64,000 bases of DNA from a virus (taxonomy: Duplodnaviria; Caudoviricetes), in the IMG/VR virus record IMGVR_UViG_3300025674_000014. One strand, 5' to 3'. Positions 53,142 to 57,929 of this stretch are shown here, in pieces. Below the pieces are notes generated by a model, which searched no databases, had not been told where the DNA came from, and was given only the letters and a program-made list of their open reading frames with translations. The position numbers and the translations under genes are program-made. Position 1 is the first letter of the stretch, and every line of letters starts with the position of its first letter.

Positions 53142-55592
53142 ATGAATGTAATTAAGAGAAATGGACGGAAAGCAGCTTTTGATGAAAGTAAAATCAAAGC
53201 GTGTATTGAACGAGCTTGCGAAGGACTAGATAATGTCGATCATGATCAAATACTTTACAATGCCCGAATCAAACTATTTGACGGGGTAAAGACATCAGAC
53301 ATTGACAAATCATTAATTAAGTCAGCTAGAGCATTGATTGAACAAGAACCTCTGTATAAAAAGGTAGCAGCGCGACTACTTCACAAGACAATTGTTAAGG
53401 AAGTGTTTCAAGAAAGTGCCGATCAAGATGCATACGAGTTACAATATCGTAAAACGTTTATTGTTAACATGAAAGCTCTAATCAAGTACGGGCTTGTATC
53501 AAAAGAGCTACGTAAATTTGATCTTACCGAACTATCTAACTATCTTAAACTCGAAAGAGATGATAAGTTTGAGTATCTTGGCTTACAAACAATTTATGAC
53601 CGGTATCTTTTGCATATCGATCAAAAGAGGTATGAAACACCTCAAGCATTTTGGATGAGAGTTGCAATGGGGCTTGCAATCAAAGAGGAGAATAAAACAG
53701 AATGGGCGAAAAAGTTCTACGATGTCTTATCTACATTTACATTCATGTCATCGACGCCTACATTGTTTAATTCGGGTTGTGTGCATAACCAACTCTCATC
53801 CTGTTTCCTTTCAACCTTTGAAGATAGCATAGATGGTATCTTTGATGGTTTACATCAAGAGGCTTTGAAGAGTAAATACGCTGGTGGGCTTGGTATGGAC
53901 CTAACTCCATTCAGACCAGCTGGTAATCATATCAGAGGTACTAACGGTCTATCGCAAGGGGCTGTTTATTTCTGGAAGATTTATAATGACATGCTAGTAG
54001 CAGTTAACCAAGGTGGTAAACGTAAGGGTGCTGGATGTGGTTATCTTGAGTCTTGGCATGGTGAGATTAACGAATTTCTTGAACTAAAGAAAAACACAGG
54101 TGATGAACGTAAACGTACACATGATATGAATACGGCCAATTGGATTCCTGACTTGTTTATGAAGCAAGTTAAGAAGAATAGTGATTGGTATTTGTTCAGC
54201 CCATATGAATGTCCGAAACTTCACGAAAGCTGGGGTGAAGAGTTCGAAAATGAGTATGCAGAATGTGTTAAAAAGGGCAAAGCTGGTGAGCTCAAGACGT
54301 TCAAGAAGGTAGATGCGAAGGAACTTTGGAAGAAGATGCTCCGAATGATCTTCGAAACGGGTCACCCGTGGATTACATTCAAAGATCCTTCGAATCTACG
54401 TTACAGTAATCAACATGAAGGTGTTGTTCATAGTTCTAACCTTTGTACCGAAATTTTACTTCATACAAAACCAAGTACATACAAGGAAGATGGTAGCCGT
54501 AAGGTGAAAGAGTATGGTGAAACGGCTGTATGTAACTTAGGTAGTATTAATTTACGTGAACACATAGTACAAAAAGATATAAACTACCACAAGTTACAGA
54601 GTACAATTGAAATTGCTATTCGAATGTTGGATAATGTTATCGATATTAACTTTTACCCAACAGAAGAGGCTAGAAACTCTAATACAAAACACAGACCTAT
54701 TGGTTTAGGTTCAATGGGCTGGCATGATATGTTTTACTATCTTGATCTCAACATGGATTCCGATGAAGCTATCGAGTTATCTGGTAAGCTTTACGAGTTT
54801 ATTTCATATCATGCTATCTTGACCAGTTCTAAACTATCAAAAGAACGTGGAAGTTATTCAACATACAGTGGGTCACTATGGGATAAAGGTTTGCTACCTG
54901 TAGATACCTATAAAAAACTGTGTGAATACCGTGGCAGAGAGTTTGATGCGGTAGAAACCCTTGATTGGTCAGTGGTTAGAAACCATATTAAACGTCATGG
55001 TATGCGTAATTCTAATACAATGGCTATTGCTCCTACCGCAACTATTAGTAGTATTGTTGGGTGTGCCCAAAGTATTGAACCGTATTACAATAATATCTTT
55101 GTTTACAGTACGTTATCAGGTGATTTTACTATGATCAACGATGCGTTTATCAGAGATATGAAAGCTATCGGTTCTTGGAATATAGAAGCGTTAGAAAATC
55201 TTAAAGCATGTAACGGAGATTTGACGCTCTATGAGTTTCCTAAGGGGGTAAGTAGAGAAGATAAGTTACGGTTAAAAGATAAGTATAAAACAGCTTTCCA
55301 ACAGGATCAACTTAAATTGATCTCTGCTGCAGCAGCAAGACAAGTATGGATTGACCAAGGTCAAAGCTTGAATTTATACAACGATCAAACGTCACTTAAA
55401 ATACTAAACGATATGTATATGCATGCTTGGGAAGTAGGGTTAAAAACAACATACTACTTACGTAATAAAGGTGCAAGTCAGATTGAAAAAAGTACGGTTA
55501 AAACAGTAAAGAAAGAAGAAGTTACTGCAGCTCAAGAAAGTACAGTAGTTGCATGTAGTATTGATAATCCAGATTGTGAATCATGTCAGTAA
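53142..55592 (+). CDS. nrdA: Ribonucleotide reductase class I alpha subunit with ATP cone
   Basis: VIKRNG ATP cone, STPTLFNSG, LSSCF, SNLCTEI, VCNLGS, APTAT, TTYY and a C-terminal CESC. Confidence 0.96.
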   Translation: MNVIKRNGRKAAFDESKIKACIERACEGLDNVDHDQILYNARIKLFDGVKTSDIDKSLIKSARALIEQEPLYKKVAARLLHKTIVKEVFQESADQDAYELQYRKTFIVNMKALIKYGLVSKELRKFDLTELSNYLKLERDDKFEYLGLQTIYDRYLLHIDQKRYETPQAFWMRVAMGLAIKEENKTEWAKKFYDVLSTFTFMSSTPTLFNSGCVHNQLSSCFLSTFEDSIDGIFDGLHQEALKSKYAGGLGMDLTPFRPAGNHIRGTNGLSQGAVYFWKIYNDMLVAVNQGGKRKGAGCGYLESWHGEINEFLELKKNTGDERKRTHDMNTANWIPDLFMKQVKKNSDWYLFSPYECPKLHESWGEEFENEYAECVKKGKAGELKTFKKVDAKELWKKMLRMIFETGHPWITFKDPSNLRYSNQHEGVVHSSNLCTEILLHTKPSTYKEDGSRKVKEYGETAVCNLGSINLREHIVQKDINYHKLQSTIEIAIRMLDNVIDINFYPTEEARNSNTKHRPIGLGSMGWHDMFYYLDLNMDSDEAIELSGKLYEFISYHAILTSSKLSKERGSYSTYSGSLWDKGLLPVDTYKKLCEYRGREFDAVETLDWSVVRNHIKRHGMRNSNTMAIAPTATISSIVGCAQSIEPYYNNIFVYSTLSGDFTMINDAFIRDMKAIGSWNIEALENLKACNGDLTLYEFPKGVSREDKLRLKDKYKTAFQQDQLKLISAAAARQVWIDQGQSLNLYNDQTSLKILNDMYMHAWEVGLKTTYYLRNKGASQIEKSTVKTVKKEEVTAAQESTVVACSIDNPDCESCQ

Positions 55593-55801
55593 GATTATCC
55601 ACAGATCAGTTAAATTTATTAACTGAAGATGAATTAAATCTAGTCCTTTATGTTGTTAATCAGCATATGGGACTAGATCCCGTATTTATCAAATCTATTA
55701 AGAAGAAAAAAATTCATGAAACTTTTCTTAACATAGAAAACACGCTATCTCCAACCGGAAGAGATGTGTTTGAAAATTTATCAAAAAAAATCTTCTTGTG
55801 A
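55583..55801 (+). CDS. Hypothetical protein between nrdA and nrdB
   Basis: 72 aa ORF. Confidence 0.5.
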   Translation: MSVRLSTDQLNLLTEDELNLVLYVVNQHMGLDPVFIKSIKKKKIHETFLNIENTLSPTGRDVFENLSKKIFL

Positions 55802-55832
55802 TATTACGCTGAGTATATATAATTATTTTTAT

Positions 55833-56831
55833 ATGGCAAAGACGGGTCAAATTCTTTCAAACGATTCAGCAGGTGTAAATCAAATTCTACCACATGTAAA
55901 TAAATGGGCATGGGATCTTTACAAGACAGGTAAACGTAATAATTGGGATCCAGAAGAGATTCCAATGACAAGAGATATACAAAATTGGAATAGTGATTTA
56001 CTTACTGATGAAGAAAAACATGTAGCTAAACGTACTCTTGGTTTCTTTGCTGGTAGTGAAAGTCTTGTTGGTAATAATTTAGTAACATTATACAAATACA
56101 TTACAGACCCAGAATGTAGGCAGTATATGTCTCGTCAAATTTGGGAAGAATGTTTACATAACGATACAATTGTTCATATTTGTGATTCCCTTTCTTTAGA
56201 TATTGCAGAAGTGTATGAAGCATATAGCAATATTCCGTCAATTAAAGCTAAAGACGAATTCTTGATGAATGTTACCAGGGGTATTTCAAAAGATATTGAT
56301 GTTGATACATTTGAAGGTAAACAAGAATTATTAAAAGCAGCTTTCTTGTACTGGATTGTTTGTGAAGGTACATTTTTCTTCTCTGGTTTTGCTATGTTAC
56401 TTTCAATGAAGGATAAGTTACCTGGTATTGGTGAACAAATTGAATATACTCTTCGTGATGAAAGTAACCATATTAAGTTTGGTTCGACTCTTATTAACAA
56501 AATTAAGGAACAACACCCAGAAGTTTGGACAGAAGAGTTTGTAGAAGAGTTAACTGAAATTTTAATGGATGCGGTTGAGCTGGAAATTGCATATGCAAGA
56601 GATGTTTTACCTAATGGTATTTTAGGTCTTAATGCTGATATGTTTGTAGAGTACATGCAATATATTGGTAACCGAAGACTTGAAGGTGTTGGTATTGAAC
56701 ATCGATTTGAATCTGATCGTAATCCTTTTGACTTTTTATCTGAAGTACAAGACTTGTTAAAAGCTAAAAACTTTTTTGAAACTCGTGTTATTGAGTATCA
56801 ATCCAGTGGTGCTTTGGTGGATGATTTCTAA
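55833..56831 (+). CDS. nrdB: Ribonucleotide reductase beta subunit, class Ic (R2c)-type signature
   Basis: Ligands GSE76SLV, E106CLH109, EGTFF and DESNH; Ile113 occupies the radical-Tyr position. Start 55833 follows promoter TTGTGA-N16-TATAAT. Confidence 0.93.
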   Translation: MAKTGQILSNDSAGVNQILPHVNKWAWDLYKTGKRNNWDPEEIPMTRDIQNWNSDLLTDEEKHVAKRTLGFFAGSESLVGNNLVTLYKYITDPECRQYMSRQIWEECLHNDTIVHICDSLSLDIAEVYEAYSNIPSIKAKDEFLMNVTRGISKDIDVDTFEGKQELLKAAFLYWIVCEGTFFFSGFAMLLSMKDKLPGIGEQIEYTLRDESNHIKFGSTLINKIKEQHPEVWTEEFVEELTEILMDAVELEIAYARDVLPNGILGLNADMFVEYMQYIGNRRLEGVGIEHRFESDRNPFDFLSEVQDLLKAKNFFETRVIEYQSSGALVDDF

Positions 56832-56851
56832 TATCATCATATAATTTATAA

Positions 56852-57424
56852 ATGAACTTTATTACATATTCAGCCGGTAGAAAATTCTTTCTTGAAAGAT
56901 GTCATTTTTTGCAATATTATGACGAGTGGGCTTATGATTATACACATAATGATATTGTACCTTACTGGGATGAAAATAATTACTGGGATAAATTTCCTAT
57001 TAAGTTAGGTTTTGAATTTAAAAACACTATTTCATTACCTGGTAAAAATATTGTTGGTGGTATTGCTTATACTTTTGAAAATTACGAGTTACATATTAAG
57101 AGATTGTTTACTTGTAAACGATATAGACGCCAAGGTGTAGCTAAACAGCTATTAAAAGAAGCGTGGTCTACTGGTTACAATAATGATTGTAGTCGTATTA
57201 GAATGTGGTGTGATAAAGATGCAGTATCATTTTATACTAAGTTAGGGTTTTCATATCTCGGTACTAATAATAAAGGATATGCTTATGTTTATATGCCAAT
57301 GTTAAACGAAAGTATGACAGAATCATTAAATACAACAAAGGGTATTAATCCATGGAGACTTTTAATAGAACGTTCTATAAAAATACCGGATGAGGCAAAA
57401 GTATTTTCTCTGTTGCATGTATAA
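56852..57424 (+). CDS. GNAT acetyltransferase
   Basis: IKRLFTCKRYRRQGVAKQLL and AVSFYTKLGF motifs. Confidence 0.85.
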   Translation: MNFITYSAGRKFFLERCHFLQYYDEWAYDYTHNDIVPYWDENNYWDKFPIKLGFEFKNTISLPGKNIVGGIAYTFENYELHIKRLFTCKRYRRQGVAKQLLKEAWSTGYNNDCSRIRMWCDKDAVSFYTKLGFSYLGTNNKGYAYVYMPMLNESMTESLNTTKGINPWRLLIERSIKIPDEAKVFSLLHV

Positions 57425-57512: not shown

Positions 57513-57929
57513 ATGAGTAAATTATTAAGTGTTTTAGGAAGTCCGAGAGCGGGACGGTACAGCTCTGATCTATTAGATACCTTTTTCAACGATCCATTTT
57601 TTTCGTTAGGAAAATCCTCCTTTACGGACGATAAGGTAAGATTTAATCAACAAAATACCCAATTTACATGTGAAATTGATCTTCCTGGTGTAACTAAAGA
57701 GAACCTTAAAATGACAGTAGAAGGGGATCAAGTATATATCAACGCTTCTAGAAATATTACAACTAGTGGTGGTACAAAAGAAGAAAGTTATAACAGGTCG
57801 TTCGGTTTCGATACTAGAGTTTATGACGTAAATCAGTTAGATGCAACGTTAGAACATGGCGTACTTCGTATTGTAGTACCTTCAATTAAGAAGTCTAAGA
57901 AAGAAGTAAAAGAAATCGTAGTTAAGTAA
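57513..57929 (+). CDS. Small heat shock protein Hsp20
   Basis: EIDLPGVTKENL, YNRSF and ATLEHGVLRIVVP motifs. TAAATA 5 nt upstream. Confidence 0.9.
   Translation: MSKLLSVLGSPRAGRYSSDLLDTFFNDPFFSLGKSSFTDDKVRFNQQNTQFTCEIDLPGVTKENLKMTVEGDQVYINASRNITTSGGTKEESYNRSFGFDTRVYDVNQLDATLEHGVLRIVVPSIKKSKKEVKEIVVK

Follow-up and report, generated by a model that had tools for sequence, protein, structure and literature searches.

Background

The type of ribonucleotide reductase (RNR) is used as an indicator of viral ecology and of the demand for metals. The closest described relative of the beta subunit treated here is the class Ic NrdB (R2c) of Chlamydia trachomatis (PDB entries 1SYY, 4D8F, 4D8G, 4M1H and 4M1I), a Mn/Fe enzyme with Glu89 as first metal ligand and Phe127 at the site of the radical tyrosine. 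The RNRdb-based rule (Lundin 2009), as applied by Harrison et al. 2019 (PMC6370689), assigns an NrdBz protein to subclass Ic when this site is Phe, Leu or Val, and Munro et al. 2013 (PMC3824934) point to Hogbom 2010 for R2c variants with Leu, Ile or Val. The di-manganese class Id shares the six ligands, Glu being first there too (PMC8463856).

A viral clade of 269 GOV 2.0 sequences was named "subclass Ic-like" in a preprint of February 2026 (PMC12918982); its alpha subunit is nearest to NrdAz, its beta subunit is without the tyrosine and has Ile or Val there, and these residues were regarded as out of line with the Ic references, where the site is Phe or Leu. According to the same source no member of the clade is characterised, the cofactor could be mixed, of another metal or none, and the distribution of the clade followed no single trace metal.

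The NrdB reported here is encoded in a stretch of 64,000 nucleotides from a tailed phage (IMG/VR record IMGVR_UViG_3300025674_000014; the whole stretch is called the window below) and is an expected, ordinary member of this already described viral clade; window and clade are both viral, both have a Tyr-less beta subunit with Ile or Val, and the two are equated on the published description.

The nrdA and nrdB genes and their residues

Features (positions of the window, strand in brackets):

53142–55592 (+): nrdA, alpha subunit, 816 aa, directly upstream of nrdB
55833–56831 (+): nrdB, class I RNR beta subunit, 332 aa, Tyr-less (Glu76/Ile113)
55944–55946 (+): Trp38 codon; equivalent to E. coli Trp48 and C. 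trachomatis Trp51
56058–56060 (+): Glu76 codon GAA, first metal ligand; equivalent to E. coli Asp84 and C. trachomatis Glu89
56148–56171 (+): E106-C-L-H109-N110-D-T-I113, second ligand pair, clade-specific Asn110, and Ile113 at the radical-Tyr position
56364–56366 (+): Glu178 codon, bridging ligand; equivalent to E. coli Glu204
56445–56450 (+): Tyr205 and Thr206, placed by alignment to C. trachomatis and E. coli NrdB
56460–56471 (+): Glu210 to His213, last two metal ligands; equivalent to E. coli Glu238 and His241, invariant alignment columns
56796–56798 (+): Tyr322 codon, C-terminal radical-transfer Tyr; equivalent to E. coli Tyr356 and C. trachomatis Tyr338, invariant

Reading frame of nrdB: the frame 55833–56831 (+) is free of stops and was translated into 332 aa. 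An alternative start (ATG at 55764) would give 355 aa; 55833 is the likelier start, since the relatives have 330–335 aa and the preceding ORF ends at 55801. The protein matched Pfam PF00268 (E 5e-74) and NCBIfam NF005550 (409.7 bits; cut-off 309).

Residues of NrdB: E. coli NrdB was added to a profile alignment of 85 sequences, and the following pairs were obtained (phage/E. coli): E76/D84, E106/E115, H109/H118, I113/Y122, E178/E204, E210/E238, H213/H241, W38/W48 and Y322/Y356. The E. coli numbering recovered in the alignment was D84, E115, H118, Y122, E204, F208, F212, I234, D237, E238, H241, W48 and Y356; the register is taken to be right, because the textbook numbering was reproduced. All six metal ligands (E76, E106, H109, E178, E210, H213) are kept and the relay residues W38, Y205 and Y322 are retained, as is D209. 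By alignment, Tyr205 corresponds to C. trachomatis Tyr222, a residue of the activation electron path; Thr206, next to the radical site in the pocket, to E. coli Ile234 and C. trachomatis Ile223; and Phe182 and Phe186 to Phe208 and Phe212 of the E. coli pocket. The DNA of the stretch E106–I113 reads GAA-TGT-TTA-CAT-AAC-GAT-ACA-ATT, i.e., Glu106 (GAA, 56148–56150), His109 (CAT, 56157–56159), Asn110 (AAC), Asp111 (GAT), Thr112 (ACA) and Ile113 (ATT, 56169–56171). The first-pass annotation, made from the letters of the window, had placed Ile at four residues after the ligand His in E106-C-L-H109-N-D-T-I113, with ATT at 56169–56171, and had named Glu76 as first metal ligand; residues and coordinates proved exact on reading of the DNA, and Glu76 stands opposite Glu89 of C. 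trachomatis and Asp84 of E. coli. The motifs ESLVGNN, LPxGILGL and KNFFETRV, from which it had drawn a likeness to the Chlamydia-type family, were all matched in C. trachomatis R2c in the phmmer alignment. Position 115 (56175–56177) is His in the phage and its nearest relatives; it is Tyr in 98 of the 121 aligned sequences and in Chlamydia (Tyr129).

NrdA: the alpha subunit contains a single ATP cone; its catalytic Cys motif (SNLCTE) is at residue 432 and its Tyr-Tyr dyad at 769 within TTYYLR, and the C-terminus bears CESC. Its best matches are the P. aeruginosa NrdA among PDB entries (5IM3, E 5e-249), which we take to be a member of the NrdAz group, and NCBIfam NF005544 (1074 bits; cut-off 965). 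As far as the published description goes (PMC12918982), the features of the Ic-like clade are all found in the window: a viral contig, an alpha subunit nearest to NrdAz, and Ile or Val in the beta subunit.

Relation to C. trachomatis R2c and place within class I

Sequence and fold: in a phmmer search against PDB sequences, C. trachomatis R2c was on top (1SYY, 4D8F, 2ANI; E about 1e-103), followed by the R2 entry 6Y2N (E 8e-99); the remaining class I beta subunits in the PDB gave E 1e-35 or weaker, and R2lox chains scored far lower (7QBK, E 3e-13). The alignment with R2c is gap-free across residues 86–150 and pairs Ile113/Phe127, Glu76/Glu89, Trp38/Trp51, Tyr205/Tyr222 and Tyr322/Tyr338. The AlphaFold2 model of NrdB (mean pLDDT 89) had chains of C. 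trachomatis NrdB as its top Foldseek matches and was superimposed on the Chlamydia Mn/Fe NrdB (4M1I/4D8F) with an rmsd of 1.2 Å over ~300 residues at 47–48% identity. Common to the two proteins, which have the same fold and are about 48% identical, are Glu as first ligand, the five other ligands, a redox-inert residue at the Tyr site, and equivalents of the relay residues Trp51, Tyr222 and Tyr338. They differ (phage/C. trachomatis) in Ile113/Phe127, Asn110/Thr124, Thr206/Ile223 and His115/Tyr129; unlike R2c, the protein is phage-encoded, its partner NrdA has one ATP cone, and on the tree it belongs to a separate clade.

Class assignment: the sequence and fold traits of class Ic are present, viz. 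the R2 ferritin-like fold (PF00268), Glu replacing Asp as first ligand, a redox-inert residue (Ile113) in place of the radical Tyr, and the five other ligands together with the relay residues. Class Ia needs Asp as first ligand and the radical Tyr, and was rejected on Glu76 and Ile113; class Id needs the Glu ligand with Tyr retained, and was rejected on the missing Tyr, the identity to the class Id structures 5OLK, 6SF5 and 8DQ3 being about 22%. Class Ie, which needs the loss of three ligands and a Tyr-derived DOPA radical, was set aside on the six ligands kept and the absence of a Tyr at the site, and R2lox, which lacks the C-terminal Tyr and the pairing with NrdA, on the invariant Tyr322 and the adjacent nrdA. 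The Glu ligand and the aliphatic site residue fit the RNRdb rule for NrdBz of subclass Ic in spirit; Ile is not named in the rule. The class Ic signature proposed at first reading is borne out by Glu as first ligand, the redox-inert Ile113 and the closest kinship to Chlamydia R2c in sequence and fold, and the radical Tyr is absent as claimed; as far as sequence and fold can tell, no other Tyr comes to lie at the site. On these alignments the class Ic-type reading appears sound, with Glu76 and the inert site residue both in its support.

Proposed cofactor and radical transfer

The protein is probably a functional NrdB whose metal cluster, most probably Mn(IV)/Fe(III), carries the oxidant, and which is paired with the upstream NrdA. 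Together with this NrdA it would make up an aerobic class I reductase of the phage's own. Since the residue at the site is the aliphatic Ile113, an oxidising equivalent cannot be stored on a Tyr there; by homology with C. trachomatis R2c, it would most likely be held on the metal cluster itself. Such a cluster, most probably Mn(IV)/Fe(III), would form from Mn(II), Fe(II) and O2, and the extra electron would be supplied via Tyr205 and Trp38. At each turnover the oxidant would pass to Tyr322, from there to the Tyr-Tyr dyad of NrdA, and then to the catalytic cysteine. The metals used, the location of the oxidant and the electron path are those that we infer for this enzyme; the Mn/Fe identity in particular is suggested by about 48% identity and the shared relay residues, and the ligands alone do not identify the metals, because class Id has the same set (PMC8463856).

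A beta subunit with one iron rather than two, and with no standing tyrosyl radical, could aid the dNTP supply of large lytic phages in iron-poor water or under radical-quenching stress. The resistance to radical scavengers that the first-pass annotation had suggested is doubtful, since two routes of inactivation by hydroxyurea are reported for the Chlamydia class Ic enzyme, interception of a pathway tyrosyl radical and direct reduction of the Mn(IV)/Fe(III) cofactor (PMC8463856). Avoidance of NO by Tyr-less phage beta subunits is a published hypothesis, not a result (PMC6370689).

Conservation and phylogeny

Close relatives: among 120 metagenomic proteins of 68–92% identity, 92 carry Ile and 28 carry Val at site 113. 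Conservation extends to the six ligands and Tyr322, and the first ligand is Glu in 121 of 121 sequences when the query is counted in. Of 80 IMG/VR viral loci (57–99% identity), 57 have Val at the site and 23 have Ile, and Glu is first ligand in 80/80. About 200 relatives were thus checked, with always Ile or Val and never Tyr or Phe at the site; as Ile/Val is kept across both sets, Ile113 is not due to chance or to a sequencing error.

Distant relatives: a filter-free HMMER search was run over 1.8 billion cluster representatives and the best 150 were scored for first ligand and site residue (D/Y 55, E/F 32, E/V 11, E/L 7, E/Y 5, E/I 4, E/A 2). Across the representative clusters Glu as first ligand tracks a non-Tyr residue at the site (E/F, E/V, E/L, E/I and E/A vs D/Y). 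The Ile/Val/Ala sequences form one clade with nothing else inside (FastTree support 0.96; IQ-TREE SH-aLRT 99, the latter obtained with four trait columns removed); this monophyly is an addition of the present analysis. The Glu/Phe clade of Chlamydia, Phycisphaera and Chloroflexota stands apart from it, with a support of 0.05–0.65 at the deeper nodes. Alignment and a tree with R2c had been proposed at first reading as the check on the Chlamydia-type kinship: the alignment is indeed close to R2c, but on the tree, with its weakly supported deeper nodes, the protein falls outside the Chlamydia-type Glu/Phe clade.

Wherever its gene context is readable, the Ile/Val/Ala clade is viral. Three deeper members (P0153, P0124 and P0294) have a phage-like context with many small ORFs and an intein-bearing NrdA; beside P0294 there are a terminase-like gene, an RNA ligase, thymidylate synthase and DHFR. 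Many deeper NrdB relatives (P0124, P0128, P0129, P0153 and others) are ~580–660 aa long, about double the length, and match in two stretches, the breaks adjoining metal-ligand motifs. The NrdA neighbours of the long NrdBs (L093 and L094) carry intein and LAGLIDADG domains, as does a terminase-like gene of L094. In the RNR genes of these phages inteins seem to be frequent; there is no intein in nrdA or nrdB of the window.

Second-sphere positions 110 and 206

Clade signature: the clade was compared with the Glu/Phe and Asp/Tyr types position by position, and two positions besides the site itself were found to be conserved in the clade and rare elsewhere. Asn110, directly after the ligand His109, is present in 16 of 17 Ile/Val/Ala representatives (Thr or Ser in the other types); Thr206 lies four residues before the ligand Glu210 and is Ile elsewhere. 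This signature is likewise an addition of the present analysis, and the two residues, being next to the metal site, could guide mutagenesis.

Ile234 of E. coli is one of three hydrophobic pocket residues around the tyrosyl radical (PMC3824934), and position 206 is assigned a pocket role from its equivalence to this Ile and from the published description of the pocket; the other two pocket residues are kept as Phe182 and Phe186. To judge from the residues, the pocket beside metal site 1 would have more room and greater polarity than its counterpart in the Chlamydia enzyme. Among representatives with intact ligands, an aromatic site residue (Tyr/Phe) goes with Ile, Val or Leu at position 206 in 78 of 78, and an aliphatic one with Thr, Ser or Asn in 21 of 21. 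The aliphatic-site set includes the Glu/Leu group, one member of which lies on a cellular contig of 800 kb.

Origin of the pairing: a single clade for the Leu and the Ile/Val/Ala groups was not rejected in the AU test (p 0.52), and the site/206 pairing offers 1–2 independent contrasts only. Independent origins of the aliphatic/Thr206 pairing were considered and not adopted, the same p value and the 1–2 independent pairs speaking against proof. On these two grounds the pairing is read as a clade signature, not as proven co-evolution, and the covariation may go back to a single historical event.

The 800-kb cellular-looking metagenomic contig (L096) carries a Glu/Leu/Thr206-type NrdB (P0183); nrdA follows it and is called in several pieces, one of them a Hint-domain piece, which would be either an intein-bearing gene or the product of an error-rich long-read assembly.

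Another cluster or activation chemistry: a cofactor like that of Chlamydia is opposed by the lineage of its own and by the second-sphere changes Asn110 and Thr206, which are absent from the Chlamydia enzyme. The separate and well-supported position of the Ile/Val/Ala clade on the trees, and the occurrence of Asn110 and Thr206 throughout the clade and in neither the Glu/Phe nor the Asp/Tyr type, would agree with a distinct subclass that has a metal-centred oxidant on another cluster (di-manganese or di-iron) or another activation chemistry. Part of the same reading is a tuning by this more spacious and polar pocket of Ile/Val113, Thr206 and Asn110. Further points on this side are the identical ligand set of class Id and the treatment of the Ic-like clade in PMC12918982, where it is kept apart and no single trace metal is tracked. 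Against it stand the identity of about 48% to the Chlamydia Mn/Fe enzyme vs about 22% to class Id, the retention of Tyr205 of the Chlamydia activation path, and the occurrence of the Thr206 change in the Glu/Leu group as well, Leu being filed under class Ic by the published rules. Taken together this alternative is unlikely. That the viral aliphatic-site/Thr206/Asn110 clade should be raised to a separate class I subclass with a cofactor or activation unlike that of Chlamydia is quite improbable; if true, it could mean, e.g., another metal pair, or a solvent-filled pocket altering proton-coupled electron transfer at site 1.

Other radical carriers

A Mn(IV)/Fe(III) oxidant, the preferred reading, was also weighed against a radical on another or modified residue (Tyr, Trp, or DOPA-like as in class Ie) instead of on the metal cluster. 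Precedent is given by the class Ie beta subunits, which can use unexpected radical carriers (PMC6176560). A clade-specific Tyr or Trp was sought at the positions with at least 80% Tyr/Trp in the close relatives, and none was found; at every one of them the Parachlamydiales protein, or a good part of the Glu/Phe or Asp/Tyr types, has an aromatic residue as well. The clade thus has no conserved Tyr or Trp that is specific to it, the ligands lost in class Ie are all present here, and Tyr115 (C. trachomatis Tyr129) is replaced by His in the phage's own subgroup. We consider a radical of this kind very improbable.

Gene pairing, genome context and host

Pairing and sole beta subunit: nrdA is directly upstream of nrdB in 77 of the 80 viral loci. 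Myovirus genes of the window code for a tail sheath, large terminase, family B DNA polymerase, helicases and an SbcC-like nuclease. Four related T4-like IMG/VR genomes (184–225 kb; CheckV completeness 96–100%; terminal repeats in two, a gp23-type capsid gene in all) were searched in place of the source genome, whose nearest record (G001) is a 27-kb fragment without NrdB. Exactly one NrdB match was obtained in each of the four, so that the Tyr-less NrdB is the only beta subunit of these phages; NrdD (class III) was sought in the same complete or near-complete genomes and gave no match. The T4-like context and the evidence for a sole beta subunit are additions of the present analysis. A non-catalytic or decoy beta subunit that binds NrdA without making an oxidant is hardly credible, as all ligands and relay residues are intact and conserved, and as no other beta subunit accompanies the complete NrdA in related complete or near-complete genomes, in which class III is lacking as well.

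Source of the reads: runs with 86% or more of the sampled words from the 3.7-kb nrdA–nrdB stretch (53142–56831) are labelled as aquatic or freshwater metagenomes, whereas the survey of PMC12918982 is marine; RNA runs held only 0.07–0.11 of the sampled words of this stretch.

Host: the nearest cellular NrdBs found in a scan of GTDB genomes belong to Phycisphaeraceae, Chloroflexota and Parachlamydiales (five loci, a non-exhaustive number since the scan matches exact peptide patterns; 45–50% identity, all Glu/Phe). Inference of a host from NrdB was given up on these matches: the nearest cellular relatives are distant and of the Phe type, and NrdB therefore gives no host signal. The first-pass annotation had taken the protein for a host clue; this is not supported, with cellular proteins just 45–50% identical and Glu/Phe at best, and an Ile/Val/Ala clade that is viral.

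Cultured phages: the best INPHARED matches (40–44% identity) were the Pseudomonas phages vB_PpuM and a record labelled Acinetobacter phage MD-2021a, all Asp/Tyr class Ia; the sole Glu/Phe match was Aquificae Joseph's Coat Spring virus (31.5% identity), in a search that may leave out the genome of the window itself and any very close to it. The Pseudomonas/Acinetobacter-type class Ia NrdB, that of the phages vB_PpuM included, is of the same NCBIfam family at 40–44% identity and has the same nrdA–nrdB order; unlike Glu76/Ile113, it has Asp and Tyr at the diagnostic positions. The record labelled Acinetobacter phage MD-2021a (CAKLQH020000007.1; L086), whose NrdB is Asp/Tyr class Ia, has rstA, a LysR regulator, a PhzF family gene and a beta-lactamase-like gene as neighbours and looks like a bacterial chromosome filed as phage.

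Neighbouring ORFs: nrdA and nrdB are separated by an ORF of 72 aa at 55583–55801 (+), which shares 10 bases with the end of nrdA; no Pfam family matched it, and tblastn matches were obtained in 9 of the 80 related viral loci, always ~250 bases before nrdB. Directly after nrdB, at 56852–57424 (+), there is a gene for a GNAT-family acetyltransferase (PF13673, PF13508, PF00583), found in 15/80 related loci; in the more distant locus L094 a GNAT gene is also near nrdB. Further downstream, an ORF of 138 aa at 57513–57929 (+) resembles by eye a small heat-shock protein of the alpha-crystallin type and gave tblastn matches in 10 of the 80 related loci.
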